Counted from the first letter of the stretch, positions 26,324 to 60,491 are shown. The stretch is DNA of 64,000 bases from an uncultured Actinomycetes bacterium (GCA_963806155.1 CAWDXC010000009.1:198520-262519); one strand, 5' to 3'. The notes: generated from the sequence alone by a model not told the origin. Numbers and translations are program-made.

Positions 26324-27259
26324 CTAGAGCTCGAGCTCCGGGGGCAGAGGCGGCATCTGGCCGGCCAGTTCGGCGATGAGCCCCTCGTACTTGGCAAGCC
26401 GCGAATCGATGTCGATCTCGCCGCTGCGCGCCGCCTGCGCAGCGAGGAACAGCCACAAGTGAGCGCGAAGCAGGTCCGCCCGCGTGTGATTCCCTGGAGA
26501 GACCGCTCCGAAGACCGTCTCCTGGTAGGCGCCGAACAGGCTCAGGGCTATGAGGTCATCACGCGCGGCCGGTCTTCCCGCAGGCGCGGGGACCGCCGTG
26601 AGCTCCTTCATGATGCGCGCCACAGTACCGGCGAGACCTTCCTGGATGGACCGGCGCAGGTCGACGTCCTCCTGCGTTCCTTCCACGCGGATCACGGCAA
26701 AGGCGGCCACACCGAGTTGAAACACGCGAAAGTGGCTGAAGACGTCCCACAGCAAGCGCTCCGCCGGATCCTCCAAAGAAGCCGTCTTCTCGTCGGCGTA
26801 GCTGACACCCCAGTTCGTCAGCACACTCACGCATTCGGCCAGGAGCCTGCGTTTGCTGGGAAAGTGGGTGTAGAAGAGACTGGCGGTGATGCCCAGCCGA
26901 CGCATGAGGGTGGAGACGTGCGTGTTCTTGTAGCCCTTGGTGGAGAACTCGCGCGTGGCAAGAGCCAGGATGCGATTGTGCATCCGCTCATACTCCAGAG
27001 ACACAAGATCCACCGCGGTCTCGTTCGCCTGGTCGACGCGATGCTGAAGTCTATCCTCGATCTCGAGGATGGAAAGTCCGGTCCGTTTCAGCTCGGCGAT
27101 CTCCTGCAGGATCTTGACGTGGTCTTCGGTGTACAAGGATCGGCTGGCAGCGGTCTTCTGAGGGCGGGGGAGCAATCCCAGCCTGAGATAGTAGTGGATG
27201 GTGGTTCGGGGTACCCCACTCACCTTCTCGAGCTCCCGAATGGTAAACGCCTGGATCAC
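26324..27259 (-). CDS. MerR-HTH / TetR-like fusion transcriptional regulator, paralog 1
   Basis: N-term MerR HTH TIRELEKVSGVPRTTIHYYLRLGLLP, then TetR-like HTH domain (~residues 90-150); GTG start with GAGGAG SD. Confidence 0.75.
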   Translation of the reverse strand: MIQAFTIRELEKVSGVPRTTIHYYLRLGLLPRPQKTAASRSLYTEDHVKILQEIAELKRTGLSILEIEDRLQHRVDQANETAVDLVSLEYERMHNRILALATREFSTKGYKNTHVSTLMRRLGITASLFYTHFPSKRRLLAECVSVLTNWGVSYADEKTASLEDPAERLLWDVFSHFRVFQLGVAAFAVIRVEGTQEDVDLRRSIQEGLAGTVARIMKELTAVPAPAGRPAARDDLIALSLFGAYQETVFGAVSPGNHTRADLLRAHLWLFLAAQAARSGEIDIDSRLAKYEGLIAELAGQMPPLPPELEL

Positions 27260-27577
27260 CTTTGCTCCTCGCTAGGGACCGACGCGAGCCGAGAGGACTC
27301 CTCAGGTGCGTCGACTCCGACCGCTGCACATGCCGACAACAAGATTAGTCTCAAGTGACGGTCCGTGGCAACAACACCGCAGACGCTCGGGGCTTGCCGC
27401 CGACGTGCACAGACCGGGCACTAGCTTCGCTGAGGACCGTTCTCGATGTGGGAGGCAGGAGGGGCGCTGCTGGATCTAATTGAACTCCACTTGACAGAAA
27501 GCTATATCAAGTCTTAGACTTCAATCATGTAGCGCTGTAAGGGCCGATCGGCAGGCCGGTGACGAGCCACGCAGATC

Positions 27578-27598
27578 AGTGACCGTCTTGCGGTCACT
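27578..27598. promoter_or_regulatory. inverted repeat AGTGACCG-n5-CGGTCACT, candidate operator
   Basis: 8-bp perfect arms, ~20 bp upstream of the -35 of the alpha1 promoter. Confidence 0.4.
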
Positions 27599-27615
27599 AT
27601 GTATATTAACTTTAA

Positions 27616-27647
27616 GACTTGAGATGTTCTTTCAAACTTGCTAGTGT
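27616..27647 (+). promoter_or_regulatory. candidate promoter: GACTTGAGAT (-35 TTGAGA), 17-nt spacer, -10 TAGTGT
   Basis: shared architecture with promoters at 41333, 50875 and 63294 (minus strand); implies ~185-nt leader before ATG 27839. Confidence 0.45.
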
Positions 27648-27838
27648 GACGGAGGAGCGGGATGTCGCTGCAGAGAGTCGTGGGTGATCGGCCAGGATGG
27701 AGTCCTCACAGGAACAGTCGACGAGGATAGCGCGCATGACCCATCCTCCGGGTTGTCTTCGCCAAACCTCAGCTGAAGAAGACTGATTATGGAGAATCGA
27801 GCCGGATCCCAACTGGGGCAACATGAGGAAAGGAGCAC

Positions 27839-30541
27839 TTGATGCCGGCGGAAAACGATCGTCGCGCAGAATTGCGCATCAAAGACAAGACGGTACTCAA
27901 GACCCTCGCCCAGTGCTCCTATGCGCAGGGGGGCGAACTGGCGTCAGTGGACGTGAAGGACGGCAAGATCGTCCGCATCCGCCCCCACCACCACACCGAA
28001 AGATACACCGAAGAAGAGCTGGGGCAGTACGAGCTCGAGAAGGACGGCGTGAAGTACAAGACGCCACCCAAAGGTCTCCTCGCCCCCTATCAGATCGCCT
28101 ACAAGAAACGGGTCTACTCTCCCAACCGCATCCTCTACCCGCTCAAGCGAGTCGACTGGGATCCCGATGGGGAGAGGAACACCCAGAACCGGGGCAAAAG
28201 CAAGTACGTCCGCATCTCCTGGGACGAGGCGACCACCACCATCGCCGACGAGATCAAGCGCATCCACAAGGAGTACGGGCCCTATGGGGTGCTCGCCCAC
28301 GGTGACGGCCACGGCGAGACGAAGACCGTGCACGGAGCCCACGCCGTGATGATGGACCTCCTCGAGCTCACCGGCGGCTTCACCCAGGCCATCCGCAACG
28401 CGGACAGCTGGGAGGGTTGGTTCTGGGGCACCAAGCACGTCTGGGGCAACGGGGAGAACGGCCTCGTCCTCCCCGCCGACAACATGATGAACGACGTCAC
28501 CCAGAACACCGACATGATCGTCCACATCGGGGCCGATCTGGAGACCACCCCCTGGGGATTCGCGGGCCAGTTCCCCTCGAACGTCCTTTACTTCTGGCAG
28601 AAGCTAGGTAAGAAGCAAGTCTTTGTCTCCCCCGATCTCAACTACTCGGGCGCCATCCATGCGAGCAAGTGGATCCCCATCCTTCCTAACACCGATGCTG
28701 CCCTGCATCTGGCCATAGCCCATACCTGGATGACCGAGGGCACCTATGACAAGGACTACGTCGCCACCCATGTGGTGGGGTTCGACAAGTTCGAGGACTA
28801 CGTGCTCGGCCGCGAAGACGGGATCCCCAAGACTCCCGAGTGGGCCTCGGCCAAGACCGATGTGCCCGAATGGACCATCAAGGCTCTTGCCCGGGAATGG
28901 GCGGCGCAACCGACCACGGTCATGCACTTCTACGGTGGCTCCTACATCCGTGGCCCCTACTCCCACGAACCGGCCCGGCTGGAAGCCTGCCTCCTCGGCA
29001 TGCAGGGGTTGGGCAAACCGGGCTGCCACCAGTACTACAAGATGGGCGGCGACGACCACTGGATGAACGACACGCCCCGCCCCCTGAAGACCATCCCCGA
29101 CATGCGCATGAGATTCGACCCCACCATCGCCAAGGGCAGCGCGGATGGGCAACAGGGGCCACCTAGCTGGAACATCTTCCCCGGCCAGAAACAGCTGGCG
29201 GTCTCCTCCAAGCAGATCATCCCCAAGACGCAACTGGCTCAGGCCATCCTCGAGGGAACCTGCTGGAGCTCCGGGAGCACCCAGCAGTTCATGCACCTGG
29301 AAGACCAGTTCAAGAGGTACGAGTATCCCATCCCGGCGGAAGAGGGCGGCACCGAGATCCACATGATCTGGATGGACAACCCCTGCCGCACCACCTGCTG
29401 GAACGACGGCTTCATGACGGTGGAGGCCTTCCGCAGCCCCAAGATCGAGACCATCGTGGTGCAGCACCTGTGGCTGGAGAACGACACCATCCTGGCCGAC
29501 CTCATCCTGCCCGTCAACACCAAGCTGGAGGAGGAAGACATCGGCCGTATGTCCGCCGGCGGACGCTCCGTGCACGGCATCCTGCTCGAGAACCAGGCCA
29601 TCGAACCCTTGGGCGAATCGCTCTCCGACTACCAAGCCGTGGGTGAGGTGGCCAAGAAGCTGGGCCTCTACGAGGAGTTCAGCGCGGGGATGACCATAAA
29701 GGAGAAGATCAAGGCGGGCTTCGACAACATGGACATCCACGATTTCGTCACCTGGGAAGATTTCCAGGACAAGCAGTACTTCATCATGCCCACCGATCCC
29801 GAGTGGGATAAGGTCCCGGCCGGTCTGCGCCAGTTCTACGAAGATCCCGAGAAGCATCCGCTGGAGACCCCCAGCGGCAAGCTCGAGTTCTACTCCCAGC
29901 GTCTGGCCGATCACTACCCCGACGACAAAGTGAGAGGCCCTCTGCCCAAGTGGATCGAGAAGGACGAGTTCCACGACGAGCGGGTCTCCAGCCCGCGGGC
30001 GCAGGAGTACCCGCTGCTGCTCGTGACCAACCACGGCCGCTGGCGGACCCATGCTCAGAACGACGACATCCCCTGGCAGCGGGAGATCATGACCTGCAAG
30101 GTCAGAGGTTGGGACGGTTATCTGTACGAGCCCATCTGGATCCATCCCACGGATGCCGAAGCGAGGGGCATCAAGGACGGCGACATCCTCAAGATGTTCA
30201 ACGAGAGAGGTACCGTCCTCGGCGGAGCCCTCGTCTGGGAGCGCATCATGCCTGGAGCCGTGTCCATGGACCACGGCTCCCGCGTCGACCTCATCAACGT
30301 CGGTCCGGACGGTTTCCTCGATCGCGGGGGGGCGAACAACCTCATCTCTCCCATCAACGGCATCTCCCCCAACTGCTGGGGTATGGCCACGAGCAGCTTC
30401 CTGGTGGAGGTGCAGAAGGTGAGCATGGCCGAGATGGAGGAATGGCGGGAGAAGTACCCCGAGGCCTTTGCGAGGAAATACGACCCGGCCTCGGGTCTGC
30501 GCTTCGAGGCCTGGGTGTTAGAGGAAGGAGAGGCCCTATGA
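27839..30541 (+). CDS. molybdopterin (bis-MGD) oxidoreductase large subunit, pyrogallol transhydroxylase / resorcinol hydroxylase-like, cytoplasmic (alpha1)
   Basis: 900 aa; no Tat motif and no N-terminal Cys cluster; conserved YERISWDEA-like, NADSWEGWFWG, LEDxxKH.., FxDP, MopB C-terminal domain; stop overlaps beta start (ATGA). Confidence 0.8.
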   Translation: MMPAENDRRAELRIKDKTVLKTLAQCSYAQGGELASVDVKDGKIVRIRPHHHTERYTEEELGQYELEKDGVKYKTPPKGLLAPYQIAYKKRVYSPNRILYPLKRVDWDPDGERNTQNRGKSKYVRISWDEATTTIADEIKRIHKEYGPYGVLAHGDGHGETKTVHGAHAVMMDLLELTGGFTQAIRNADSWEGWFWGTKHVWGNGENGLVLPADNMMNDVTQNTDMIVHIGADLETTPWGFAGQFPSNVLYFWQKLGKKQVFVSPDLNYSGAIHASKWIPILPNTDAALHLAIAHTWMTEGTYDKDYVATHVVGFDKFEDYVLGREDGIPKTPEWASAKTDVPEWTIKALAREWAAQPTTVMHFYGGSYIRGPYSHEPARLEACLLGMQGLGKPGCHQYYKMGGDDHWMNDTPRPLKTIPDMRMRFDPTIAKGSADGQQGPPSWNIFPGQKQLAVSSKQIIPKTQLAQAILEGTCWSSGSTQQFMHLEDQFKRYEYPIPAEEGGTEIHMIWMDNPCRTTCWNDGFMTVEAFRSPKIETIVVQHLWLENDTILADLILPVNTKLEEEDIGRMSAGGRSVHGILLENQAIEPLGESLSDYQAVGEVAKKLGLYEEFSAGMTIKEKIKAGFDNMDIHDFVTWEDFQDKQYFIMPTDPEWDKVPAGLRQFYEDPEKHPLETPSGKLEFYSQRLADHYPDDKVRGPLPKWIEKDEFHDERVSSPRAQEYPLLLVTNHGRWRTHAQNDDIPWQREIMTCKVRGWDGYLYEPIWIHPTDAEARGIKDGDILKMFNERGTVLGGALVWERIMPGAVSMDHGSRVDLINVGPDGFLDRGGANNLISPINGISPNCWGMATSSFLVEVQKVSMAEMEEWREKYPEAFARKYDPASGLRFEAWVLEEGEAL

Positions 30542-31344
30542 GCAAGGTTTTCGTGTTTGATACCGCCATCTGCAACGGCTGCTACTGCTGCCAGATCGCC
30601 TGCAAAGACGAGCACTGCGGCAACGACTGGACTCCCTACGCCAAGCCGCAGCCCGATACGGGCCAGTTCTGGCTCAAGCTCTCCGAGCATGTGCGCGGGA
30701 CCGTGCCCAAGGTGAAGATGCACTACCTGGCCTCGCTCTGCGCCCACTGCGACGAGGCCCCGTGCATGGCCGCCTGCTCGGTGGAAGGAGCCATCTACAA
30801 GCGCGCGGACGGGTTGGTCATCATCGATCCAGAGAGGTGCACAGGCTGCATGAGCTGCCTGGACGCGTGCCCCAGCGATTCCATCTACTTCAACGAAAAC
30901 CTCACCATCGCTCAGAAGTGCACGGGCTGCGCCCATCTGCTCGACGCCGGCTGGACCGAGCCCCGCTGCGTGGACGCCTGCCCGACTCTGGCCCTGAAGT
31001 ACATGGACGAGGATGAGGCAAAGGAACTGATCGCCGGGGCCGAGACCAGGAATCCGGCCCGAGACGAGCCTCGCCTCTACTACCTGAACATCCCCAAGAA
31101 GTTCGTCGGCGGAACGGTCTACGATCCCGTCGCGAAAGAGGTCGTGAAAGGAGCGACCTGTACCCTTACTGGTAACGGCAGCACCTGGACTGAGGCCACC
31201 GACGGCTTCGGGGACTTCTGGTTCGAGGGCCTCGTGGCGGGCGCATACTCTCTGGAGATAGCGGCCGCGGGCTTCCCGACCAAGCGATTCCCGGAGATAG
31301 CCGTCGAGAATGACGTCAACCTGGGAGACATCCCTTTGGCTTGA
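30538..31344 (+). CDS. 4Fe-4S ferredoxin-type beta subunit with C-terminal carboxypeptidase-regulatory/TTR-like beta-sandwich domain (beta1)
   Basis: CNGCYCCQIACKDEHCG, CxxCxxxPC, CTGCMSCLDACP, CTGCAHLLD...RCVDACP cluster motifs; C-term GTVYDP...GDFWFEGL...Y.LE; translationally coupled to alpha1. Confidence 0.8.
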   Translation: MSKVFVFDTAICNGCYCCQIACKDEHCGNDWTPYAKPQPDTGQFWLKLSEHVRGTVPKVKMHYLASLCAHCDEAPCMAACSVEGAIYKRADGLVIIDPERCTGCMSCLDACPSDSIYFNENLTIAQKCTGCAHLLDAGWTEPRCVDACPTLALKYMDEDEAKELIAGAETRNPARDEPRLYYLNIPKKFVGGTVYDPVAKEVVKGATCTLTGNGSTWTEATDGFGDFWFEGLVAGAYSLEIAAAGFPTKRFPEIAVENDVNLGDIPLA

Positions 31345-31407: not shown

Positions 31408-32439
31408 TTGATCCCGGTACTCACTATCCGAGATCTCGAGGAATCGAGCGGGGTTCCGCGGACCACGATCCACTACTATCTGAGCATAGGCCTGCTCCCC
31501 CGCCCCCAGAAGACCGCCCGTAGCCGGTCTCTCTACACCAGGGACCACCTCGACATACTGCGAGAGATCGTGGAGCTCAAGCAGGCCGGGCTCGCTCTGG
31601 AGGAGATCCAAGCACAGCTGCAGCATACGGTCGACCGGGCCAACAACGGCGAGGTTGATCTTGCCGCTCAAGAGCATCGGCGCGTGCACGATAGGATCCT
31701 GGCTCTGGCTGCCCAGGAACTGGTCGCAAAGGGTTATAGGAAGACGCATGTCACGACTATTGTGCGCAAGCTCGGCATCACCACAGCCGTCTTCTACAGC
31801 CATTTTCCGAGCAAGCGCGCGCTCCTCTCGGAATGCGTCAGCGCGCTTCTGGGCTGGGGCCTCGAGTTTGTAGATGCCAAAGAGGCCTCGACGGACGACC
31901 CGGCCGAGCGCTTGCTCTGGCTTGTCTTTGGGCATTCGCACGTGTTTCAACTCGGCTCGACCGCCATGGCCCTGACCCGCGTCGACGGCGTCCAGGACGA
32001 GAGCGACCCACAAAGGCCTATGGAGGCGCTCTTCAAAAACATCGTGGAGCACATCAAGGGGGACCTGGCATACGTGCCCAGCGAAGGCTCGAAGCCACCC
32101 GCGGTGCCGGACGAACTCGTGGCCCACAGCCTGTTCGGTGCATATGAGCAGACTGTATTCAGGTCATTCTCGGACAAGATGTACACCCGTGAGGATCTGC
32201 TATTGACTCACCTATGGCTGTTCTTGGCCGTGCAGGCTGCGCGAAGCGGCGAGATCGACGTCGATTCAAGACTGGATAGATACAGGGAACTGGTGTCACA
32301 GCTCGCCACCCAGATGCCGCCTCTTCCCCCGCTCTTGCAGAATGAGAGCACCCATGACCGAGGCGGGGGGACGACGGCCGATCGGATGACTGCTGATGGT
32401 TTATCCCCGATCACTACGCAAGCTGACTCAATGACTTGA
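31408..32439 (+). CDS. MerR-HTH / TetR-like fusion transcriptional regulator, paralog 2
   Basis: TTG start with AAGGAG SD 6 nt upstream; LTIRDLEESSGVPRTTIHYYLSIGLLP MerR HTH plus TetR-like domain; ~55% identical to paralog 1. Confidence 0.7.
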   Translation: MIPVLTIRDLEESSGVPRTTIHYYLSIGLLPRPQKTARSRSLYTRDHLDILREIVELKQAGLALEEIQAQLQHTVDRANNGEVDLAAQEHRRVHDRILALAAQELVAKGYRKTHVTTIVRKLGITTAVFYSHFPSKRALLSECVSALLGWGLEFVDAKEASTDDPAERLLWLVFGHSHVFQLGSTAMALTRVDGVQDESDPQRPMEALFKNIVEHIKGDLAYVPSEGSKPPAVPDELVAHSLFGAYEQTVFRSFSDKMYTREDLLLTHLWLFLAVQAARSGEIDVDSRLDRYRELVSQLATQMPPLPPLLQNESTHDRGGGTTADRMTADGLSPITTQADSMT

Positions 32440-32624
32440 GACCGCTTTCTAAACATGTTAGCGTATGGTCTGGTCTTCTAAGGGCGGGACGGGAAGTACC
32501 GTTCGAAGGTCGTGAAGGGGGGTAGTCGACAAGAGAAGTGATCCTCGATCAGGCGTGTTCTTAGGCTCTTCAACCAAAGGATGCTTCAGCAACTGCATGT
32601 GCGACCTGTGAAACGGAGGGGGAC

Positions 32625-34121
32625 ATGAGCGAGGCGAACGAAACTCACGAAGACCGCAGCCGGGAAGAACAAGAGGAGAAGAGGCCGGCGAGACCGGTCA
32701 GCCGGCGTGATTTCCTGAAGATCGCCGGAATCGCCGGAGCGGCTGTGGGGGCCGGCGCCGGCCTGGGCGGCCTACTCGCCGCCTGCGGCGAAGAAGAAAC
32801 GACCACGACGACCGCGGGCGAGACGACCACCACCACGACCGCCGCCACCACAACGACCGCCGCCGCCGCGACGACCACCGTCAGCACTGCGGCAGAGACC
32901 GGCCGCGAGCTCAAGCTCGGTTTTGTTACGCCGACAACCGGGGCCCTGGCCTCCTTCGGCGTGCCCGACGGATACTGCGTCGAACGGGCGAAAGAGGTGA
33001 TCGCGGACGGGATCGTATGCGGTGACGGACTGAAGCACCCTGTCACAATCAAGGTCGTTGACAGCCAGTCAGACCCCAACCGGGCGGCACAGGTAGCAGG
33101 CGACCTCATCCTAAACGACAAGGTGGATATTATCCTCGTAGCCTCCGCACCCGACAACGTCGTGCCGGTGTCCGGTCAGGCTGAAGCGCTCGGGACACCG
33201 TGCCTCTCCTGCGACGCCCCCTGGCAGAGCTATATGGAGCCTCGGACCGGAGGCGACCTGACGGCGGTGTTCAAGTGGACCTATCACGTCTTCTTTGGTG
33301 GGGAGGACAGCTTCGACATCATGGCCGACGTGTTTCACCGGTTGCCGACCAACAACGTCCTGGCTTTGCTGTATTCCAACAGCTCCGACGGCAACGCCGT
33401 ACATGATCTCGAACTGCCGGTGCTCGAGGAGATGGGCTTCACCGTTGTCGATGGTAGTGGTTTTTCGGAAGGCACCGAAGACTTCACCTCGATAATCAGC
33501 ATGTTCAAGAAGGCGGGGGCCGAGCTGGGGCACGGTCTGCTTTCTCCCCCGGACTTCATCAACTTCTGGAAGCAATCGATCCAGCAGTCCTGGCTGCCAA
33601 AAACGTCCATATGGGGCAAAGCCCTACTTTTCCCCCAGTCCATGGAAGCGATCGGCCCCATCGGCTACGGTCTCTGTGCGGACCAGTGGTGGGGAGCGGA
33701 CTGGCCCTACAAGTCGGCTCTACTTGGAGAGACCTGCCGGCAGTTCGCAGATGACTATGAGGCCCGGACCGATTCGCAGTGGACACAGCCCGTGGCTCAC
33801 TTCATGCTCTTCGAGTGGGCCTATGACGTACTCAGTCGAACGGCCAGCGTGGATGACAAGGACGCGATCATGACGGCGGTCAAGAGCACCAAGCTTGAGA
33901 CCATTCTCGGCACCGTCGATTTTTCAGCGCCGGTGGAGCCGGTCGGACCGCCCTGGGCCGCGGGTCCACGGCACGTCGTGGAGAACGTCTACAAGATCAA
34001 CCATCCTGCCGGCCAGTGGATCAAGGGCACGAAGTGGCCCTTCGATTTGGTTACCGTCAGCAATGCCGGGTGTCCCGCCATTCCCGTGGCAGCCGAGCTA
34101 CAGCCCTATACCGTGAGCTGA
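32625..34121 (+). CDS. ABC transporter substrate-binding lipoprotein, PBP1 family, paralog 3
   Basis: GGAGGGGGAC SD; RRDFLKIAGIAGAAVGAGAGLGGLLAACG lipobox; Thr-rich linker. Confidence 0.85.
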   Translation: MSEANETHEDRSREEQEEKRPARPVSRRDFLKIAGIAGAAVGAGAGLGGLLAACGEEETTTTTAGETTTTTTAATTTTAAAATTTVSTAAETGRELKLGFVTPTTGALASFGVPDGYCVERAKEVIADGIVCGDGLKHPVTIKVVDSQSDPNRAAQVAGDLILNDKVDIILVASAPDNVVPVSGQAEALGTPCLSCDAPWQSYMEPRTGGDLTAVFKWTYHVFFGGEDSFDIMADVFHRLPTNNVLALLYSNSSDGNAVHDLELPVLEEMGFTVVDGSGFSEGTEDFTSIISMFKKAGAELGHGLLSPPDFINFWKQSIQQSWLPKTSIWGKALLFPQSMEAIGPIGYGLCADQWWGADWPYKSALLGETCRQFADDYEARTDSQWTQPVAHFMLFEWAYDVLSRTASVDDKDAIMTAVKSTKLETILGTVDFSAPVEPVGPPWAAGPRHVVENVYKINHPAGQWIKGTKWPFDLVTVSNAGCPAIPVAAELQPYTVS

Positions 34122-34135
34122 GCCGCAGACGACCT

Positions 34136-37298: not shown

Positions 37299-37311
37299 CG
37301 GGCGTATCCCC

Positions 37312-41195: not shown

Positions 41196-41332
41196 AGACT
41201 GGTCTCTTCCTTGTGCCTCGCGTTCGTTCGCCCGCGGATGGGAAGTGACTCCCCAGTCACTGTCTGAGAGCATATCAGAATCGCGTTTTAGAGCCAAGCG
41301 TTCTGTTGGCCCTAACGCCGCGAGGGCAAAGC

Positions 41333-41361
41333 TTGACAGGCTCATAAGAAATCGGTAGTGT
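41333..41361 (+). promoter_or_regulatory. candidate promoter TTGACA, 17-nt spacer, -10 TAGTGT
   Basis: sigma70/sigmaA-like hexamers with ideal spacing, ~170 nt upstream of alpha2 ATG. Confidence 0.5.
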
Positions 41362-41366
41362 GGTTG

Positions 41367-41394
41367 TGACTGACCCACCAGTCATTCTGACTGA
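41367..41394. promoter_or_regulatory. TGACTG-n6-CAGTCA inverted repeat plus extra TGACTGA copy, candidate operator at +1
   Basis: same TGACTGAC core as the etfBA palindrome at 46713..46732. Confidence 0.4.
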
Positions 41395-46678: not shown

Positions 46679-46707
46679 TTGACAAGCCTTGGGTAACTGG
46701 GTAGGGT
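46679..46707 (+). promoter_or_regulatory. candidate etfBA promoter TTGACA, 17-nt spacer, -10 TAGGGT
   Basis: ideal spacing; immediately followed by palindrome. Confidence 0.5.
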
Positions 46708-46712
46708 GGTGC

Positions 46713-46732
46713 ATGACTGACGAGTCAGTCAT
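46713..46732. promoter_or_regulatory. palindrome ATGACTGA-cgag-TCAGTCAT, candidate operator
   Basis: perfect 8-bp arms directly downstream of the -10. Confidence 0.45.
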
Positions 46733-46834
46733 AACCCGAGCCGGCATCTACTGGACAGGTGTTTGACCCCGATGACCAAGGGGACGGGTCGGTCTGCATG
46801 CCGCCCGTCTTTCCCTAGAAGGGACGCGAAGCCC

Positions 46835-50717: not shown

Positions 50718-50861
50718 TTCTGAAGACCACTGGCCCCGGGCGCCGGGCAGGCGCCGGCGGGCCCCGGACCAGAGAAGGGCATCGCGAGTGGATGGTGTCA
50801 TCTTCCACGGGAACGTGCCGCATCAGAGAGAGATCGCTGGCTCCGCGATTCGCTACCCATT

Positions 50862-50903
50862 GTCACTCACGAACTTGAGTCAGTGTTTTATAAGTGATAG
50901 TGT
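50862..50903 (+). promoter_or_regulatory. candidate promoter: GTCACTCACGAACTTGAGT extended -35, 17-nt spacer, -10 TAGTGT
   Basis: ~130 nt upstream of alpha3 GTG start; ACTCACGAACTTGA matches ACTCACGGACTTGA at 26251..26270. Confidence 0.5.
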
Positions 50904-53551: not shown

Positions 53552-53553
53552 CT

Positions 53554-54384
53554 ATGTCGCGCTATGCCCTGCTCATAGACATGGAGAAATGCAACGGCTG
53601 CTACGCCTGCTTCATGGCCTGTCGCGACGAGCACTGCGGGAACGATCACCTGCCTTACTCGGCGGCCCAGCCCTATTCGGGCCACTTCTGGATGCGCATC
53701 ATCGAACGCGAACGCGGGTCGTATCCCAGGGTCAAGGCCGCCTACATCAAGGTCCCCTGCATGCACTGCGATGACGCTCCCTGTGTCACCCAGTATCCGG
53801 ACCAAGTCTACAAGCGCCCGGACGGCATCGTCATCATCGATCCGGTCAAAGCCAAAGGGGCGAAGGAGATCCTGGATTCCTGCCCCTACCGGGTGATCTT
53901 CTGGAACGAGGAGACCGATCTGCCGCAGAAATGCACCATGTGCGCGCATCTTCTCGACGAGGGTTGGGAAGAGCCCCGGTGCGTGGAAGTATGTCCCACC
54001 AAGGCCCTTCTCTTCGGCGACCTGGACGACCTGGAGAGCGAGGTAGCCAAACGTCTAGCTGAAGGTGAGGCTGAGGTCTTCCACCCCGAATACGGCCTCA
54101 AGGGGAGCGTCCGGTACCTGGGCCTGCCCAAACGGTTCATCGCCGGCAGCCTGGTCTTCGGCGATACCGACAAATGTGCGGGCGATGTCACCGTGACCCT
54201 GGCCGGCGACGGGGAGAAGAGGCAGGCCACGAGCAACGGCTTCGGGGATTTCGAGTTCGAGGGAGTGGACAAGGACAAGGAATACATCCTGGAGGTCAAG
54301 CACCCAGGCTACCGGGACAGGCAGCTCGCCGTGTACACACAGATCGACAAATACCTAGGCGACATAGTGTTGGAGAAGATCTAG
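53554..54384 (+). CDS. 4Fe-4S ferredoxin beta subunit with C-terminal beta-sandwich domain (beta3)
   Basis: GGGAGG SD; CNGCYACFMACRDEHCG etc.; 3 nt downstream of alpha3. Confidence 0.8.
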   Translation: MSRYALLIDMEKCNGCYACFMACRDEHCGNDHLPYSAAQPYSGHFWMRIIERERGSYPRVKAAYIKVPCMHCDDAPCVTQYPDQVYKRPDGIVIIDPVKAKGAKEILDSCPYRVIFWNEETDLPQKCTMCAHLLDEGWEEPRCVEVCPTKALLFGDLDDLESEVAKRLAEGEAEVFHPEYGLKGSVRYLGLPKRFIAGSLVFGDTDKCAGDVTVTLAGDGEKRQATSNGFGDFEFEGVDKDKEYILEVKHPGYRDRQLAVYTQIDKYLGDIVLEKI

Positions 54385-54431
54385 TACCGGATCTCGAGGC
54401 ACGCTAGATCTTAACGGCTAGTAAGGAGAGT

Positions 54432-56945
54432 GTGGTGGAAGAGGTCCTGACCCAGTGCACTTCAGGCGGAGCGGTCCAGGTCCATGTCGAGGATGGGGTG
54501 ATCACCAAGATCCGGCCGCTCGTCTTCGACGAGACAGATGCCCCTGGGTGGACGCTCGAGGCCAGAGGTAGAGAGTTCAGTCCTCCGCGCAAGACAACGG
54601 TGATGCCGTACGTCGTCGCGGAGAGGAGCCGCATCTACTCGGAGAACAGGATCAAGTATCCCTGCAAGCGAGTGGATTTCGATCCCAAGGGGGAACGGAA
54701 CCCCCAGAACAGAGGGAAGTCCGCCTACGAGCGCATAAGCTGGGACGAAGCGTTCGACATAGTCGCGGGCGAGATGCAGCGAGTGCGCGAGATCTACGGG
54801 CCGGCCGCCATAGCTGCCTCCACCGGATCGCACCACAACTGGGGTCTGCTGTTCTACAAGATGGGACCCTTCGGCCGCTTCTTCAACATGCTCGGCTACA
54901 CCGAGATCGTGGACAACCCGGACAGCTGGGAGGGTTGGCACTGGGGCGCCATCCACACCTGGGGCTACTGGTGGCGGCTCGGGGTCTCGGACAACTACGA
55001 CATGCTCGAGGAGGCCCTCAAGAACACCGACCAGGTGGTCATGTGGTCGGTGGACCCGAATACAACCACCGGCTATCCGGGCCAGGATTCGCTCCTGTGG
55101 CGGATATGGTTGAAACAACTGGGCATCAAGCTGATCTTCATCGATCCCTGGTGCAACTTCACGGCCGGTATGCTGGCGGACAAATGGTTCGCCCCGCGGC
55201 CGGGCACGGACGCGGCTCTGGCTCAGGCCATCGCCTACGTGTGGATCAAAGAGGGCTCCTACGACAAGTGGTTCGTCGAGAACCGGACCGTGGGCTTCCC
55301 GGAATTCGAGAAGCACATCCTGGGCGAGCAAGACGGGATAGCCAAGACGCCGGAGTGGGCCGCGGAGATAACCGGCATCCCGGCCCGCGACATACAGGCG
55401 CTCGCTCGCAGTTGGGCCTCGAAGCGGACCATGCTTGGGTGTGGGGCTATGGTCGGGCTCGGGGGCGCGTGCCGGGGAGCGTACGCGACCGAATGGGCCC
55501 GGATGATGGTGCTCCTCATCTCGATGCAGGGCTTGGGCAAACCGGGTGTCAACGTCTGGGGCGGGTGCGGAATGGGCCAGCCCGCCGACTACTCCTTCCG
55601 GTTCCCCGGCTATTCCTCAGCCGGTTGGGACGCCTTCAACCTCGTCTCCGAGAAGAGAGCGATCAATAACGTGTCCCAGAAGATCTGCCGTCTGCTCCTG
55701 CCCGAGGCCATCCTCGCTCCACCGGTGGAGTGGGATGGGGAGGGCTTCTGCGGGTTTGCGCTCGACCAGCAGTTCACTCACCACACCTACCCCGAACCCG
55801 GGACCACCGAGATCAAGCTGCTCTACCGGCACGGGGGCTCCTACATCTCCACCATGACCGACACCAGCCGGTTCGTCCGGATGTATCAGAGTCCCAAGCT
55901 CGAGTGCGTGGTCAGCCAGGATTGCCACTGGCAGAGTGAGACCAAGTTCGCCGACGTGATCCTGCCGGCCAGCACCAATTTCGAGCAGGAGGACATCTGT
56001 GAGTGGGGGAATCCCGGTGGATACGCGGAAAACAAGGGTGGAGAGAACTTCCGCGTCGTCATCAGTCAGAAGAAGTGCATCGAGCCCCTCTGGGAATCGA
56101 AGCCGGACTGGGACATCTACTGCGAACTGGCCAAACGCTTGGGCTTCCTCGAGGACTATACAGAGGGCAATACGCGGGAGGATTGGATCAGAAAGCTCTT
56201 CGACTCCACCTCGCTGCCGGAGCACGTGAGCTACGAGGACTTCAAGAAGAAGGGCTACTTCGTGGTGCCTCCGCCTTCGGGCGACTACAAGCGCACCGTC
56301 TCCAACCGCTGGTATTACGAGGGCCGCAAGTGCGACGTCCCCGACTCGTTCAATCCTACGATCAGGGGCGAGGGCACGGACAAGCTGGGCACCTACAGCG
56401 GCAAGATCGAGTTCGTCTCGCAGAGTCTGCTGGAGCACTTCCCGGATGACGAAGAACGGCCGCCGCTGCCCCGGTACATCCCCAGCTGGGAAGGGTACGA
56501 CAGCGCGCTCGCCAAGAAGTACCCGCTGCAGCTCCTCACGACACACGCCCGCTTCTCGTTCCATACGCAATACGACAACAAGACCCCGTGGCTGGACGAG
56601 ATCCCGGTGCACCGCGTCATCAAGGACGGGTACGCTTATCTTCCGGTCCGGATCCATCCTTCGGATGCCGCGCCGCGCAACATCCGCCACGGAGACATCG
56701 TGAAGCTCTTCAACGACAGGGGTTCCGTGCTGTGCATCGCTCAACTCACCGAGCGGGTCAAGCCCGGCGTCCTTCACACCTACCAGGCGGGAGCCAAGTA
56801 CGATCCGCTCGAGCCGGGCAAGGCCGGAAGCACCGACAAGGGTGGCTGCGTCAACATACTGACCCCCGGGCGGATGATCTCGAAGCACGCGCCAGGCATG
56901 GCCAACAACTCCTGCCTGGTGGAAGTGGCGAGGAGTGATGTCTAG
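54432..56945 (+). CDS. molybdopterin oxidoreductase large subunit, transhydroxylase-like (alpha4, ~50% identical to alpha3)
   Basis: 837 aa; AAGGAG SD; only 47 bp after beta3, so probably co-transcribed. Confidence 0.8.
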   Translation: MVEEVLTQCTSGGAVQVHVEDGVITKIRPLVFDETDAPGWTLEARGREFSPPRKTTVMPYVVAERSRIYSENRIKYPCKRVDFDPKGERNPQNRGKSAYERISWDEAFDIVAGEMQRVREIYGPAAIAASTGSHHNWGLLFYKMGPFGRFFNMLGYTEIVDNPDSWEGWHWGAIHTWGYWWRLGVSDNYDMLEEALKNTDQVVMWSVDPNTTTGYPGQDSLLWRIWLKQLGIKLIFIDPWCNFTAGMLADKWFAPRPGTDAALAQAIAYVWIKEGSYDKWFVENRTVGFPEFEKHILGEQDGIAKTPEWAAEITGIPARDIQALARSWASKRTMLGCGAMVGLGGACRGAYATEWARMMVLLISMQGLGKPGVNVWGGCGMGQPADYSFRFPGYSSAGWDAFNLVSEKRAINNVSQKICRLLLPEAILAPPVEWDGEGFCGFALDQQFTHHTYPEPGTTEIKLLYRHGGSYISTMTDTSRFVRMYQSPKLECVVSQDCHWQSETKFADVILPASTNFEQEDICEWGNPGGYAENKGGENFRVVISQKKCIEPLWESKPDWDIYCELAKRLGFLEDYTEGNTREDWIRKLFDSTSLPEHVSYEDFKKKGYFVVPPPSGDYKRTVSNRWYYEGRKCDVPDSFNPTIRGEGTDKLGTYSGKIEFVSQSLLEHFPDDEERPPLPRYIPSWEGYDSALAKKYPLQLLTTHARFSFHTQYDNKTPWLDEIPVHRVIKDGYAYLPVRIHPSDAAPRNIRHGDIVKLFNDRGSVLCIAQLTERVKPGVLHTYQAGAKYDPLEPGKAGSTDKGGCVNILTPGRMISKHAPGMANNSCLVEVARSDV

Positions 56946-57776
56946 ATGACCAGATACGGCATGGTAGTCGATATCGTCAAGTGCAGTGGCTGTTACAACT
57001 GCTTTCTAGCCTGCAAGGACGAGCACTGCGGCCATGATCAGCCGGGGTACGCCGCCCCTCAGCCGATGACCGGACACTCCTGGATGCGGCTGGTGGAGAC
57101 TGAGCGAGGCTCGTATCCAAAGGTCAAGGTCGCCTACACGGCCGTCCCCTGCATGCACTGCCAGGAAGCCACCTGTCTCGAGAAGGCCGAAGGCGGAGCG
57201 GTCTATCGCCGGGCCGACGGCATCGTCATGATCGACCCGGTGAAAGCGAAAGGGCAGAAGCAGCTGGTCTCTTCCTGCCCCTACCGGGTCATCTACTGGA
57301 ACGAAGAGCTAGACCTGCCGCAGAAGTGCACGTTCTGTGCCCATCTCCTCGATGCCGGCTGGAAAGAGCCCCGGTGCGTGGAGCTATGTCCCGCCGGCGC
57401 TCTGACCTTCGGGGATCTGGACGATCCCGAGAGCGAAGTGGCGAAATTGGTCTCCGGGCAGAGGACGGAGGCCCTACATCCGGAGTTCGGGCTGAAGGAG
57501 AACGTCGTCTACGTCAACCTGCCCAAGAAGTTCATAGCCGGGACCGTGGCGTTCGGGGATACGGACGAATGCGCCCCCGGGGTGACCGTCACCGTGGGCA
57601 TTGACGGCCGGCAGCAGACGGCCATGACGGACGAATTCGGCGATTTCGAGTTCGAAGGTCTGGCCGAGGGGCAGGACTACACCGTGATCCTTGCCGCGGA
57701 CGGATACCGTTCCCAGGAATTGAACGTGAAGACACTGAGGGACATCTACCTGGGAGTCATAACGCTCGAGAAGTGA
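56946..57776 (+). CDS. 4Fe-4S ferredoxin beta subunit with C-terminal beta-sandwich domain (beta4)
   Basis: ATG directly after alpha4 TAG; same Cys pattern. Confidence 0.8.
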   Translation: MTRYGMVVDIVKCSGCYNCFLACKDEHCGHDQPGYAAPQPMTGHSWMRLVETERGSYPKVKVAYTAVPCMHCQEATCLEKAEGGAVYRRADGIVMIDPVKAKGQKQLVSSCPYRVIYWNEELDLPQKCTFCAHLLDAGWKEPRCVELCPAGALTFGDLDDPESEVAKLVSGQRTEALHPEFGLKENVVYVNLPKKFIAGTVAFGDTDECAPGVTVTVGIDGRQQTAMTDEFGDFEFEGLAEGQDYTVILAADGYRSQELNVKTLRDIYLGVITLEK

Positions 57777-57969
57777 TAACGAGCTGATGGTGGCCCTCCC
57801 CCAGCCAGGCCCGGCCAAGGGTCGGGTGTGGCGGCGGGAGGGCCCCACCATCCGGTTTGAACCGCCCTGCCTCCCTCGTCCGCCAAGCCAGAAGCCGGCC
57901 GCCCCTCCGAACGCTCGAAGAGTTCCGGAGGGGCGGCCGCTGGGGGGGCGCTGGAAACCCGGTTTCCTG

Positions 57970-59446
57970 TTAGTAGGTAAGCGGCTGAAGAGTCCCATCC
58001 AGCACGACGATATCGGGGTCGGTGCTGAAGACGAGCAGCTTGTCGATGGGCCATTTGCCCTCTGTCGCCTTGACCCACTGGCCGCAGGCCTGCGGCGGGC
58101 TGCAGCCGTTGATGAACGGATGATGGGTCATGTCCTTCACCGGCGCCGTGAAGTCGATCTGACCTAGACTCGTGTCCAGCTTCGTCGCACCGATGGCGGA
58201 CGGCGATCCCCGCCTTGTCGTCGACGTTGGTGACGCGTTTGAACACGTCGGCCGCCCATTCGAAGAGGACGAGGATGATCACGGCCTCGCTATACTGGCT
58301 GCCGCTGAAGGCTTCGTACTCGTCCGCGATCTGCTGACAGTTCATCCCCGTCAAAGAGTCGACGAACTTCTGGCGCGGAGTCCAGGTGCCGGCGCTGGAG
58401 AGGTTGTAGCCGATATCGCCCATGGAGAGCACGCCCTCCGGGAAGATCAGGCCTTTGTGACCGATAGCCACCACCGGCTGGAATGCCTGCTGATGGGACT
58501 GCGTCCAGAAGTTGGTGAAATCGGGCGTGAGCATGACCGCGAGCAACAGCTCACATCCCGCCTTCTTGATCGCGGTGATCTGGGCTGTGTAGTCCTCAGC
58601 CCCCGGGGTGTAGAGATCGGTCATCACCACCTGATAACCGGCCTGCTCGAGGATGGGCGGCCCCCATTGGGCCCAGTTGTTGCCGTCCACATCGTTGGCG
58701 AGCACGAGGCCGACGATCTTGTTGCTCGGGACCTGCGGGAGAAGCCCGGTGTAGTTGACCGTGGTGAGCACGTCGTCGAAGGCATAGGTATAGGTCCATT
58801 TGAAGCCCTCTGCCGGCATCTTCCTACCCACGGTGAACGCGTGCACCTCGGTCCAGTTGGAGATCAACGGGCATCCCATCGATTCGGCGACATCACCGGC
58901 CGGGTTCACGGTATCGGGGGTGACCGCCGCCATGACGAGGTCGACCTTGGTGTTCTGGATGAGGTCGCCGGTGACCTGCGCCGCCCGGTTCGAATCGGAC
59001 TGGGTATCCACCAGACTGACCTCAAAGGAGTGCATCATCTTGTCGCCGAGGACGAGGCCCTCACCGATAGCATCCTCGAAATGCTTCTGCGCCCATTTGC
59101 CCGCGGCTGCGAACGGCGCCAGCGGACCGGTGATGGGTACGACATAGCCCAGCTTGATCGGCCGGCCGACCTCTGGTCCGGCGCTCACGGTGGTCGTGGA
59201 CGCGGGGGCCGTAGTGGTAGTGGACGCAGGAGCCGTGGTGGTGGTGCTCGCCGGAGCGGTCGTGGTTGTTACTTCCTCTTCGCCGCAGGATGCGAGGAAG
59301 GTGCCCAACCCTCCGCCGATCCCGATAGCGCCGCCCGCCACGGCGGCAAGCCTGAGAAACTCGCGGCGACTCACCGGTCTCGTGCCCGTAGGCTCTTCGA
59401 TTCCTTCGCGGTCGTGTTGGTCGTCAGATCTGTCGCGCTCGTTCAC
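57970..59446 (-). pseudogene. ABC transporter substrate-binding lipoprotein, PBP1 family, paralog 5, frameshift near 58215
   Basis: N-terminal 400 aa in ORF 57746..59446 frame; conserved C-terminus (...KLDTSLGQIDFTAPV...LQPLTY) found in another frame ending at TAA 57970; 21-bp tandem repeats encode (TTTAPAS)x3. Confidence 0.65.
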
Positions 59447-59552
59447 GTCCCCTCCTTCTTCATCTCTCTTCCCTGCCGTATGAGGACTGTTCCGCGTAGC
59501 CTTGTTCCCCGCCTGATTCTGGTCGATTGTCGCAGTAGGTCCTCATGGGAGT

Positions 59553-60491
59553 TCAGCCCTCGAGGATCGGCGGCAGCGGCGGTGCGTCTGTCGCCAGGCG
59601 GTCGATCAGTTCGTTGTAACGACTCATCCGCGAATCAATGTCTATCTCCCCCCTTCTTGCCGCCTGAACGGCTAGGAACAACCACAGGTGCGTCTTCAGC
59701 AGGTCCTTGTGGCTGTACTTCTTGTCGGAGAACATGCGAAAGATCGTCTGCTCGTAAGCACCCAAGAGGCTATGGGCGACAAGCTCGTCGGGGACCGCGG
59801 GTGGCTTCGCGCCTCTCGCCGAGGTGTCGGCGAAATCTCTGGTAATGCGCTCGATCACGCCTTCGAGAGCTTCCTCGATGGGTTTGCGCAGTTCGCTATC
59901 GTCGTGTGTCCTCTCCACCCGGACAAGGGCGAGGCCCGACGAGCCCAGATCGAAGACATGAAGGCTTGCGAATGCCAGCCAAAGCAGTCTCTCGGCGGGG
60001 TCCTCCGTCGAGTCGCGTTTCGAGTCCCCATACGTGAGGCTCCAGGCCATCATCACCGAGACGCATTCGGCAAGAAGTCGCCGTTTGCTGGGAAAATGGC
60101 CGTAGAAGAGGCTTGCCGTTATCCCGAGCTTCTTCATGATCGTAGTCACGTGGGTGCTCTTGTAGCCTTTGGTGGTGAACTCCGCCACGGCCACCGCGAG
60201 GATGCGGTTGTGGACCCGCTGGTACTCCTGCGCGACCAGATCGACTCCGGCTTCATTGGCGCGATGGACCCGGGGCTCCAGTTCGGTCTCGATCTCGTCG
60301 AGAGACAGGCCGGCCTCCTTGAGCTCCCCGATCTTCTTGAGGATCTCCGCGTGCTCCTCGGTGTAGAGCGATCGGCTGGCGGCGGTCTTCTGAGGCAGGG
60401 GAAGCAGCCCCTGCCTCAAGTAATAGTGGATGGTGGTCCGCGGCACCCCCGTGGCCCGTTCGAGCTCCCCGATGGAAAGGACTTTGACCAC
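59553..60491 (-). CDS. MerR-HTH / TetR-like fusion transcriptional regulator, paralog 3
   Basis: GTG start with AGGAG SD, immediately downstream of the AOR stop; LSIGELERATGVPRTTIHYYLRQGLLP. Confidence 0.7.
   Translation of the reverse strand: MVKVLSIGELERATGVPRTTIHYYLRQGLLPLPQKTAASRSLYTEEHAEILKKIGELKEAGLSLDEIETELEPRVHRANEAGVDLVAQEYQRVHNRILAVAVAEFTTKGYKSTHVTTIMKKLGITASLFYGHFPSKRRLLAECVSVMMAWSLTYGDSKRDSTEDPAERLLWLAFASLHVFDLGSSGLALVRVERTHDDSELRKPIEEALEGVIERITRDFADTSARGAKPPAVPDELVAHSLLGAYEQTIFRMFSDKKYSHKDLLKTHLWLFLAVQAARRGEIDIDSRMSRYNELIDRLATDAPPLPPILEG

Follow-up and report, generated by a model that had tools for sequence, protein, structure and literature searches.

MerR-type DNA-binding domains fused to complete TetR-family regulators in a catabolic gene island of an uncultured actinomycete

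Two DNA-binding domains in one polypeptide

Three genes in the window (the whole 64,000-nucleotide stretch of actinomycete DNA analysed here) encode proteins in which a MerR-type winged helix-turn-helix domain, spanning approximately amino acids 5 through 80, continues in frame into a complete TetR-family protein ending in the sequence PPLPP. This fusion is genuine; it represents an uncharacterised variation on known regulator families and occurs in many uncultured anaerobes. We see about an even chance that these proteins serve as one-component small-molecule sensors, specifically as ligand-released repressors that act on an extended candidate operator with the MerR head as an accessory anchor.

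The three open reading frames are RegA (26324..27259, minus strand, 311 amino acids, GTG start at 27259), RegB (31408..32439, plus strand, 343 amino acids, TTG start at 31408) and RegC (59553..60491, minus strand, 312 amino acids, GTG start at 60491), and a tblastn search of the window recovers exactly three copies. As an earlier note on this DNA had claimed, each begins with a non-ATG codon four residues ahead of the sequence TI(R/G)ELE. An AGGAG-type ribosome site lies 5 to 8 nucleotides before each start, and public gene calls use the same starts, with P0076 and P0078 matching RegC and RegB exactly. Pairwise identities of 58-61% fall at the top of the 50-60% range given previously. The tail QMPPLPP, which had been ascribed to all three proteins, is carried by two of the paralogs; the third has DAPPLPP, leaving PPLPP as the common core, and RegB continues for an extra 31 amino acids beyond it.

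Pfam scans detect two different DNA-binding domains in each of the three proteins, both well above the gathering cut-offs. MerR_1 (PF13411; E values of 1e-14 to 3e-17) covers amino acids 5/6 through 71/72, corresponding to nucleotides 27044-27247 in RegA, 31423-31623 in RegB and 60279-60476 in RegC, and PF00376 scores at or above its own cut-off. TetR_N (PF00440; E values of 6e-13 to 7e-14) is matched over its full length (positions 1-47 of 47) at amino acids 97 through 143, or nucleotides 26831-26971, 31696-31836 and 60063-60203, respectively. An AlphaFold monomer model (pLDDT 85), which supplements the ORF and Pfam evidence in the case of RegA, is consistent with this architecture: a MerR winged helix-turn-helix (helices 7-14 and 18-27, strands 33-43, helices 45-59 and 64-80) is predicted to precede a complete TetR fold of nine helices. 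The latter includes the DNA-binding helices at residues 85-108, 115-122 and 126-132 and the all-helical ligand/dimerisation domain (helices 4 through 9, to approximately amino acid 299), such that the C-terminal 215 residues constitute a TetR protein. The earlier note had named a lone DNA-binding domain, such as TetR with some other N-terminal extension, as the finding that would overturn its proposal, and neither the Pfam scan nor the model reveals such an arrangement.

The FadR-type equivalog NF053878 yields 22-28 bits against a cut-off of 200, and the NCBIfam TnrA model gives a weak match to RegC (E value of 2.6e-5). Among PDB entries, no solved structure covers the MerR and TetR parts together. 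A gene at 40236-41378 was suspected of being a fourth fusion paralog, with TetR_N starting at amino acid 90, and was rejected on finding no MerR match; its long N-terminus is probably an over-called start.

Distribution and conservation of the fusion

A profile search identifies 619 representative clusters at E<=1e-10, with members in Actinomycetota, Desulfobacterota, Firmicutes and Chloroflexi that are named only as ‘MerR family regulator’. Both domains are present in all 120 of the listed 90%-identity clusters, a single match stretch spans both domains in approximately 105 of the best 150 of the 619 representatives, and a genome scan for the fusion yields 77 loci. Both domains are likewise scored in distant members from a Desulfobacterota genome bin and from Desulfatibacillum alkenivorans DSM 16219. 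The architecture had been called unusual, which holds in the sense that it is uncharacterised, but it is common in public data.

These observations bear on the explanation that annotation or assembly has caused adjacent MerR and TetR genes to be read as one. Nothing favours such an artefact beyond the fact that few of the regulators studied have two heads, and it is already refuted: the window contains three independent copies, each with an uninterrupted frame, and hundreds of full-length fusion homologs come from many assemblies and phyla, one cultured strain included. We therefore assign it practically no probability.

Across 121 family members, the MerR wing (amino acids 29-44) is the best-conserved segment, with a mean top-residue frequency of 0.95; the corresponding values are 0.81 for TetR_N, 0.76 for the MerR helix-turn-helix and 0.66 for the ligand domain. 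Judging from these residue frequencies, both heads are under selection. The paralogs are 61-77% identical in the two DNA-binding parts and 49-59% identical in the ligand domain. The prior suggestion that they are ligand-specific sensors is consistent with the greatest divergence falling in this domain.

A literature search for MerR-TetR fusions found nothing relevant, which is a weak negative given that most subscription journals lie outside its coverage. BgeR of Geobacter was considered as a candidate for a family member that has been characterised; its family is not stated in the papers found, and no Geobacter locus is among the 77 from the genome scan.

A promoter module associated with the fusion genes

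A shared promoter module of approximately 54 base pairs is associated with the regulator genes and is composed of a CTAY box, ACTCA, GAC-TTGAKA-N3-TTTCT, a 17-bp spacer and a TG-extended -10 element. It occurs at six sites in the window and recurs beside orthologs in other genomes. On the minus strand just downstream of RegA, the copy at 26232..26285 (TTGATA-17-TACTGT with ACTCA, GAC, TTTCT and an upstream TAT box) heads a GlcD/F/E-like flavoenzyme operon (24606-26105, 23332-24615 and 21768-23396), and is conserved upstream of the orthologous operon in loci L001, L002, L010, L021 and L027. Upstream of RegA, also on the minus strand, the copy at 27482..27535 has a weak -10 element and a perfect dyad, ACTTGA-N12-TCAAGT (27490-27513); it is conserved in L001 and overlaps a plus-strand promoter-like site, TTGACA-18-TAGACT. 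The plus-strand copy at 27594..27647 (TTGAGA-17-TAGTGT) heads the molybdoenzyme operon at 27839-31344, with which RegB is probably co-transcribed. Related copies precede orthologous molybdoenzyme genes in L001 and L022, and L012 has a similar but more degenerate copy between regulator and molybdoenzyme gene.

Two further copies conform to the same plan. The plus-strand site at 32411..32464 (TTGAGA-17-TAGCGT, conserved in L001) overlaps the RegB stop codon and heads a solute-binding protein gene (32625-34121), and the minus-strand site at 63294..63346 (TTGAGA-17-TAGGTT) heads the operon unk62444-AOR-RegC, upstream of which it is also conserved in L008 and L003. RegC starts 9 nucleotides past the stop codon of the aldehyde:ferredoxin oxidoreductase (AOR) gene, which places it inside an operon unk62444-AOR-RegC-(SBP 57746). 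Finally, a plus-strand variant at 50850..50903 (AACTTGAGTC...TTTTA, with an ACTCA-N6-TGAGT dyad) is conserved in L008 and heads a twin molybdoenzyme operon (51038-57776) that lacks an adjacent fusion regulator.

The motif was defined post hoc from inspected sequences and was afterwards confirmed on independent loci. A strict pattern, ACTTGAKAY-N3-4-TTTC, occurs five times in the window versus 0 expected, always in intergenic positions that adjoin fusion genes or head their operons. In 387 kb of independent related loci it occurs three times versus 0.02 expected, each time beside an ortholog, and looser copies lie beside orthologs in at least seven further loci. The consensus from 17 instances is cTATG-N8-ACTCA-n-gGAC-TTGAkAt-N3-TTTCT-N4-aTGaTAGtGT with a 17-bp spacer. 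Visual inspection and regular expressions served to call the promoters, since their TANNNT -10 boxes escape an E. coli-type scan. The additional module elements are absent from other promoters of the window (41333, 46679 and ~15107), and the short motif TCAAGTCTTA alone, unlike the longer module, is not significant.

The module overlaps the -35 element and spacer, and in the window clade it forms no obvious palindrome, with clear dyads only at 27490-27513 and 50866-50881. A simple inverted-repeat search of the intergenic regions returned nothing useful. Two palindromes had been put forward previously as binding sites, and neither appears suitable. That at 27578-27598 is not conserved in L001, a 96%-identical ortholog locus; the consensus scanner identifies it as a terminator-like hairpin, of which only the right edge overlaps the conserved CTAY box. 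The other, at 41367-41394, is located at the promoter of 40236-41378, a plain TetR gene, and its TGACTGAC element recurs only at 46714-46731, before electron-transfer flavoprotein (ETF) genes.

Upstream regions of a distant clade of fusion proteins carry a different element, the palindrome AATGA(C/A)-N2-4-(G/T)TC(A/G)TT, with 21 hits upstream versus 3 elsewhere. This sequence is nearly identical to GATGAATGAATACTCATTCAT, the operator of the acyl-CoA-released TetR repressor FadR (PMC5397183). The FadR-box palindrome is absent from the window clade and is seen only in the distant fusion relatives.

Evaluation of possible mechanisms

The earlier note had envisioned a DNA-twisting MerR head. In this classical mechanism, the promoter-bound protein would respond to ligand by untwisting an over-long spacer to activate transcription, and the TetR body would be a replacement effector domain. 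The MerR_1 match is indeed strong and complete up to profile position 67 of 69, and NCBIfam metal-sensor MerR models align as far as approximately amino acid 100. However, the long antiparallel coiled-coil helix (alpha5) of MerR proteins is absent from the AlphaFold monomer model, wherein helix 64-80 is followed by TetR helix 1. PF09278 (MerR-DNA-bind) reaches only E values of 0.05-0.07, under its cut-off, and the MerR-type effector site at the end of the coiled coil is replaced by a TetR protein. Furthermore, spacers are 17 bp in 17 of 17 candidate target promoters near family members, rather than the typical 19-20 bp, and an intact, conserved TetR_N would be pointless in a pure effector module. 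Thus the fusion probably does not work by MerR-style DNA twisting, and we regard the classical mechanism as very improbable.

The candidate promoters should be strong unaided, because they match the -35 consensus at five of six positions and have an optimal spacer and a TG-extended -10 element. Their near-consensus character and 17-bp spacers point to ligand-released repression rather than MerR-style activation. In such a scheme, the proteins would dimerise via the TetR body in the usual manner of that family, and each dimer would thus possess four DNA-reading heads, two of TetR type and two of MerR type. Single-chain MerR-TetR-TetR and MerR-TetR-MerR-TetR relatives exist, and these tandem chains fit a TetR-type dimer as the working unit. 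The dimer would occupy an extended operator of approximately 50 bp over the -35 element and spacer of the strong promoters that head neighbouring catabolic or transport operons and the regulators' own transcripts. Repression would persist until a pathway substrate or intermediate, perhaps a phenolic compound or a CoA thioester, occupies the TetR pocket and frees the protein from the DNA. The MerR head would provide an accessory anchor on the DNA, making the recognised operator longer and its recognition more precise, with no spacer-untwisting activation. Since the paralogs have their DNA-reading parts in common and vary chiefly in the ligand pocket, they may couple similar promoters to different inducers. 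The ligands of structural neighbours are diverse, including acyl-CoAs, gamma-butyrolactones and resorcinol.

A class-II-type ligand-dependent activator was also considered, which would bind the CTAY and ACTCA boxes upstream of or overlapping the -35 element and recruit RNA polymerase, with a head or the PPLPP tail contacting the polymerase. Some TetR-family proteins activate transcription, and FasR, the top Foldseek match, is reportedly an activator. Likewise, the conserved positions include the -35 hexamer and upstream boxes at approximately -45 to -60, and the conserved proline-rich tail could be a protein-contact motif. Promoters that already approach consensus argue against this possibility, as do the conserved TTTCT, whose position within the spacer would bring a bound activator into conflict with polymerase, and the FadR-repressor-type operator of the distant relatives. 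We therefore judge activation of this type to be unlikely.

Alternatively, the TetR part alone might be the operator-binding repressor, while the MerR head bridges or loops DNA, multimerises on direct repeats or binds another protein. The RegA/molybdoenzyme divergent region has two facing module copies (27497-27512 and 27617-27633, ~105 bp apart), paired CTRYAG boxes are found in the Desulfobacterota clade, and the model shows no coiled coil of the kind through which MerR heads usually pair. MerR-like proteins that lack this coiled coil, BldC among them, are reported to bind direct repeats as multimers. However, the module copies are mostly single, and the wing and recognition helix are conserved to an extreme degree, as expected for sequence-specific DNA reading at every site. 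These features make a TetR-only operator contact quite unlikely, though less so than the classical MerR mechanism.

A more ambitious form of ligand-released repression is offered tentatively, and we would lean against it as a whole. The four heads of one dimer, drawn from two families, would read DNA at once, with the TetR pair and the MerR pair each recognising an element of its own in a bipartite operator of ~50 bp that combines CTAY/ACTCA-type boxes with a TetR-type core. This arrangement would be a conserved one, from Actinomycetota to Desulfobacterota, and would mark out a distinct, previously undescribed regulator class for anaerobic aromatic/acyl-CoA catabolism.

Gene context and significance

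The setting agrees with the proposed role in aromatic catabolism, as evident by a gene island with pyrogallol-hydroxytransferase-like molybdoenzymes, AOR, GlcD/F-like flavoenzymes, ETF genes and solute-binding proteins. The notion of one regulator per catabolic module applies only loosely: RegA and RegB flank a single molybdoenzyme operon (27839-31344), and the other three molybdoenzyme operons of the window have no adjoining fusion regulator.

The TetR and MerR families, which rank with the largest and most thoroughly understood groups of bacterial regulators, follow opposite logics: a TetR protein lets go of the DNA, whereas a MerR protein remodels it without leaving. Their widespread natural fusion prompts the question of how a single ligand pocket could govern DNA-reading heads of two kinds, and also of how composite operators of such length are read. 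The inducers of the paralogs would offer a direct route to the substrates of the molybdoenzyme, AOR and flavoenzyme/ETF modules of uncultured soil Actinomycetota, and their identification could yield new biosensors for phenolic compounds.

Comparison with known regulators

The closest TetR systems are ligand-released repressors, especially the acyl-CoA-sensing group of FadR(YsiA), FasR and PfmR, as well as QacR and EthR. Relative to these repressors, the fusion has approximately 85 extra N-terminal residues that constitute a second, MerR-type DNA-binding domain, and a conserved PPLPP tail. Members of the TetR family typically have ~190-220 amino acids with the DNA-binding domain at the extreme N-terminus, whereas TetR_N begins at amino acid 97 of the 311 to 343 residues of the fusion. 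The recognition-helix Gly42 of FadR appears to be replaced by Ser or Ala in the window clade, as read from motifs rather than from an alignment with FadR. In place of the short palindrome of TetR operators, the candidate fusion operator is a long, largely asymmetric module.

As in the MerR family, the N-terminal helix-turn-helix, wing and helices 3 and 4 match Pfam MerR_1 and PDB entries for MerR, CadR and MtaN over amino acids 5-84, although alignment reveals SRSLY in the wing where MerR proteins have GYRxY. Unlike MerR, CueR, ZntR, CadR, BmrR and MtaN, the fusion has neither the long coiled coil nor its effector site, and its 17-bp candidate promoters differ from MerR-activated promoters with their 19-20-bp spacers. 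BldC and TnrA/GlnR have MerR-like DNA-binding domains without a coiled coil, and the fusion may resemble them in using a stand-alone MerR-type winged helix without MerR-style untwisting; neither a TetR body nor a ligand pocket is present in those proteins. More than one DNA-binding module per polypeptide is also present in Mce3R (two TetR units per chain, PDB 9b7y), which is among the PDB matches, and in HspR of the ‘fused homodimer type’ (NCBIfam NF047377). However, Mce3R and HspR pair copies from the same family, whereas the fusion joins two different families.

Three genes encode proteins with two DNA-binding domains

The three regulator genes lie at exactly the coordinates proposed by the earlier note: RegA at 26324-27259 (minus strand, GTG start), RegB at 31408-32439 (plus strand, TTG start) and RegC at 59553-60491 (minus strand, GTG start). 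Each open reading frame (ORF) follows an AGGAG-type ribosome-binding site and, as had been noticed, begins with a non-ATG codon four residues ahead of the conserved TI(R/G)ELE of the helix-turn-helix (HTH). Public gene calls agree on the starts, database protein P0076 being identical to RegC and P0078 to RegB. The proteins share 58-61% pairwise identity by tblastn and alignment, and tblastn searches of the window with all three recovered no fourth copy. The C-terminal QMPPLPP ascribed to each is present in RegA and RegB (proline-rich tails at 26324-26359 and 32308-32340), but RegC carries DAPPLPP (59553-59591), leaving PPLPP as the common core. The tail (M/A)PPLPPxLE, which may be a protein-contact motif, is kept at 90% or above within the actinobacterial clade and is missing from distant relatives.

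Pfam searches locate MerR_1 at amino acids 5/6-71/72 (E 1e-14 to 3e-17) and a full-length TetR_N match at amino acids 97-143 (E about 1e-13) in all three proteins. Because both scores far exceed the curated cut-offs, the claim of two DNA-binding domains per protein is borne out, and the alternative of a single such domain is not. NCBIfam gave sub-threshold matches only, to metal-sensing MerR models over about amino acids 5-100 and to ScbR, FadR or FasR-type TetR models over about 94-265. A PDB sequence search matched MerR-type and TetR-type entries on separate segments, with no entry spanning both.

An AlphaFold2 model of RegA made with 121 homologs as input (pLDDT 85.3, pTM 0.71) predicts a MerR winged HTH (helices 7-14 and 18-27, wing strands 33-43, helices 45-59 and 64-80), followed after a four-residue break by helix 85-108, which is an N-terminally extended TetR helix 1. 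The TetR HTH (115-122 and 126-132) and six more helices reach to about residue 299, and the C-terminal tail is coil. Canonical MerR proteins dimerize via a long antiparallel coiled-coil helix. The model lacks this element, whose position merges into TetR helix 1.

Metagenomes also hold tandem architectures, MerR-TetR-TetR and MerR-TetR-MerR-TetR, in keeping with a protein that functions as a TetR-type dimer. Two metagenomic examples are P0121 (535 aa) and P0157 (587 aa); such single-chain tandem members of the family amount to naturally occurring ‘covalent dimers’ and could help structural work.

Both heads are conserved across a wide distribution

A word-index search yielded 197 clusters at E<=1e-5. 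Both domains are present in all 120 of the 197 clusters that were listed (52-96% identity), which are labelled simply ‘MerR regulator’, with ‘AcrR/TetR’ used now and then. When 1.84 billion representatives were searched with a profile, 619 matched at E<=1e-10, 78 of them at E<=1e-30. Of the 150 best matches, about 105 align to both DNA-binding domains in a single stretch, and the rest are mostly fragments. Scanning one genome per species provided 77 related loci. Close relatives (at least 43% identity) occur in uncultured Actinomycetota only, in Gaiellales/Thermoleophilia-type bins, many of them from a single Danish soil survey. More distant ones, at 25-40% identity, come from Desulfobacterota, Syntrophomonadaceae and other Firmicutes, Geothermincolia, Chloroflexia, SAR324 and a cultured strain, Desulfatibacillum alkenivorans DSM 16219; Pfam found both domains in the two distant proteins tested. 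Several bins carry two to four paralogs, as evident from loci L004, L009 (a tandem pair) and L022 in one bin and L016, L018 and L027 in another.

In a 121-member alignment of the whole protein, conservation peaks in the MerR wing (amino acids 29-44), whose mean top-residue frequency is 0.95, compared with 0.81 for TetR_N, 0.76 for the MerR HTH and 0.66 for the ligand domain. Compared part by part, RegA, RegB and RegC are 49-59% identical in the ligand domain, against 62-69% for the MerR part and 61-77% for TetR_N. From this part-wise conservation, both heads are under purifying selection, with divergence concentrated in the ligand pocket. An annotation or assembly artefact is excluded, and the fusion is real and selected.

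A shared promoter module adjoins the regulator genes

Five sites in the window carry the pattern ACTTGAKAY-N3-4-TTTC, which was absent from 100 shuffles: just downstream of RegA, heading a flavoenzyme operon (26247-26262); upstream of RegA (27497-27512); upstream of a molybdoenzyme operon (27617-27633); overlapping the RegB stop codon and heading a binding-protein gene (32434-32449); and upstream of the AOR-RegC operon (63309-63324). A variant around 50872 heads the twin molybdoenzyme operon. Since the pattern was recognized by inspecting intergenic DNA and derived from these same sequences, it was tested on the related loci, leaving out the two near-identical ones. Three matches were found in these 387 kb versus 0.02 expected, each directly beside an ortholog, and looser copies adjoin orthologs in L007, L010, L012, L014, L017, L021, L022 and L027.

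All six copies in the window can be aligned gap-free across 54 nt, and 17 aligned instances give the consensus cTATG-N8-ACTCA-n-gGAC-TTGAkAt-N3-TTTCT-N4-aTGaTAGtGT. This contains a -35 hexamer, a 17-bp spacer and a TG-extended TANNNT -10, as well as conserved positions beyond what a sigma factor explains. These extra elements were not seen at the other window promoters at 41333, 46679 and about 15107. The earlier note had proposed a DNA-twisting MerR head. With 17-bp spacers in the candidate promoters and the coiled coil missing from the RegA model, a MerR-style untwisting mechanism is disfavored.

A perfect dyad, ACTTGA-N12-TCAAGT, lies upstream of RegA at 27490-27513, where a plus-strand TTGACA-18-TAGACT promoter-like site faces the minus-strand module copy. 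It may serve as an autoregulation site.

Two palindromes had been suggested as targets of the fusion regulators. The one at 27578-27598, between two divergent promoter modules, was rejected as an operator: the hairpin formed here (AGTGACCG-N5-CGGTCACT) precedes a T-rich tract and gets a terminator-like score, and L001, the closest relative, does not conserve it. The other, at 41367-41394, is likely to belong instead to the plain TetR encoded at 40236-41378 (minus strand). Palindromes of the form TGACTGAC occur in the window only at 41367-41374 and 46714-46731 (regions 41333-41394 and 46679-46735), each just 3′ of a TTGACA-17-TAG(T/G)GT promoter, and are likely operators of this TetR for the ETF operon and the molybdoenzyme operon at 41531. 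The ORF called for this TetR probably extends too far 5′, its real start lying near 41195. The protein carries an extra ~100-aa beta-rich C-terminal domain that also ends some 400-aa MerR-TetR proteins (e.g. P0211).

Candidate operators of distant relatives

Within 350 nt before the regulator genes of L029-L076 (17 kb), the palindrome AATGA(C/A)-N2-4-(G/T)TC(A/G)TT occurs 21 times, as against three in the remaining 582 kb. D. alkenivorans and a Syntrophomonadaceae bin, for instance, have AATGAATAGTCATT, and one form, AATGAC-NN-GTCATT, is FadR-box-like. The palindrome is almost identical to the operator GATGAATGAATACTCATTCAT of Bacillus halodurans FadR, a TetR repressor released by acyl-CoA (PMC5397183). 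This points to the TetR heads as readers of the palindrome and to repression as the mode. The FadR box is absent from the window clade, whose recognition-helix motifs place Ser/Ala where FadR has the DNA-contacting Gly42, and these TetR heads probably read another sequence within the module.

The same upstream regions carry paired CTRYAG boxes (14 versus three elsewhere), found in Desulfobacterota, and 20 of 47 loci have C[TA]A[TC]AGTT 32-59 nt before the gene, a distance that rises to as much as 87 nt in three loci. Both look similar to the window clade's CTAY and ACTCA-type boxes. Because the MerR head is nearly invariant across phyla, we infer that these boxes are candidate MerR-head sites.

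The most likely reading, which we hold with about even confidence, is that the fusion is a ligand-released repressor on an extended operator. It would dimerize through the TetR body, and its four heads would occupy an operator that overlaps both the -35 and the spacer of promoters strong in their own right until ligand releases it, with the paralogs differing mainly in inducer. A class-II-type activator seems unlikely, and a looping or multimerizing role for the MerR head somewhat more so.

Genomic setting

The window holds four paralogous pyrogallol-hydroxytransferase-like pairs, each a molybdopterin large subunit with a Fer4_11/CarboxypepD_reg small subunit (27839-31344, 41531-45018, 51038-54384 and 54432-57776), a further molybdopterin enzyme (18386-20659), an aldehyde:ferredoxin oxidoreductase (AOR, 60500-62410), two sets of GlcD/E/F-like FAD_binding_4 and CCG proteins, ETF alpha/beta subunits and five Peripla_BP_6 solute-binding proteins. 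Its non-fusion regulators are one IclR (14195-15070) and two plain TetRs, the second at 13232-13885. The IclR gene and this second TetR gene lie in the upstream part (2872-15070), together with two S15/CocE-type hydrolases (6322-8064 and 9682-11457), a URO-D-like protein (5117-5890), a glucose/sorbosone dehydrogenase-like protein and another binding protein. The four molybdoenzyme pairs with the GlcD/E/F-like flavoenzymes, ETF and AOR look like a polyphenol-transforming island of an uncultured actinomycete.

RegA is divergent from the molybdoenzyme operon at 27839-31344, RegB lies directly 3′ of the same operon, and RegC sits between AOR and a binding-protein gene. The proposal of one regulator per catabolic module is therefore only loosely true, because one operon has a regulator on either side and the other three molybdoenzyme operons have none.

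Among relatives, the regulator adjoins a FAD/CCG/FAD trio in L001, L002, L003, L004, L010, L011, L016, L021 and L027, molybdoenzyme pairs in L001, L002, L009, L012, L016 and L022, and AOR in L003 and L008. In distant Desulfobacterota it is divergent from a beta-oxidation-like operon with thiolase-like, ChsH2/enoyl-CoA hydratase, acyl-CoA dehydrogenase, CoA ligase, amidohydrolase and old-yellow-enzyme genes, and in many of L029-L076 it is divergent from a conserved operon of this type.

Conserved ORFs at 62444-63199 (minus strand), 16899-17555 (plus) and 17662-18321 (plus) had no Pfam match. The first (251 aa) is probably part of the AOR operon, as it precedes AOR in the window, L003 and L008; a copy is also present in L021, where no AOR was detected.

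Comparison with known regulators

The fusion was not found among solved structures by PDB sequence and structure comparison, and the literature searched yielded no paper describing it. It is best called an uncharacterized form of known one-component regulators, already in sequence databases but unremarked. Although mechanistically intriguing, it still only joins domains from two familiar families; its inducers, for their part, could show what the neighbouring molybdoenzymes act on. [quoted passage not shown]
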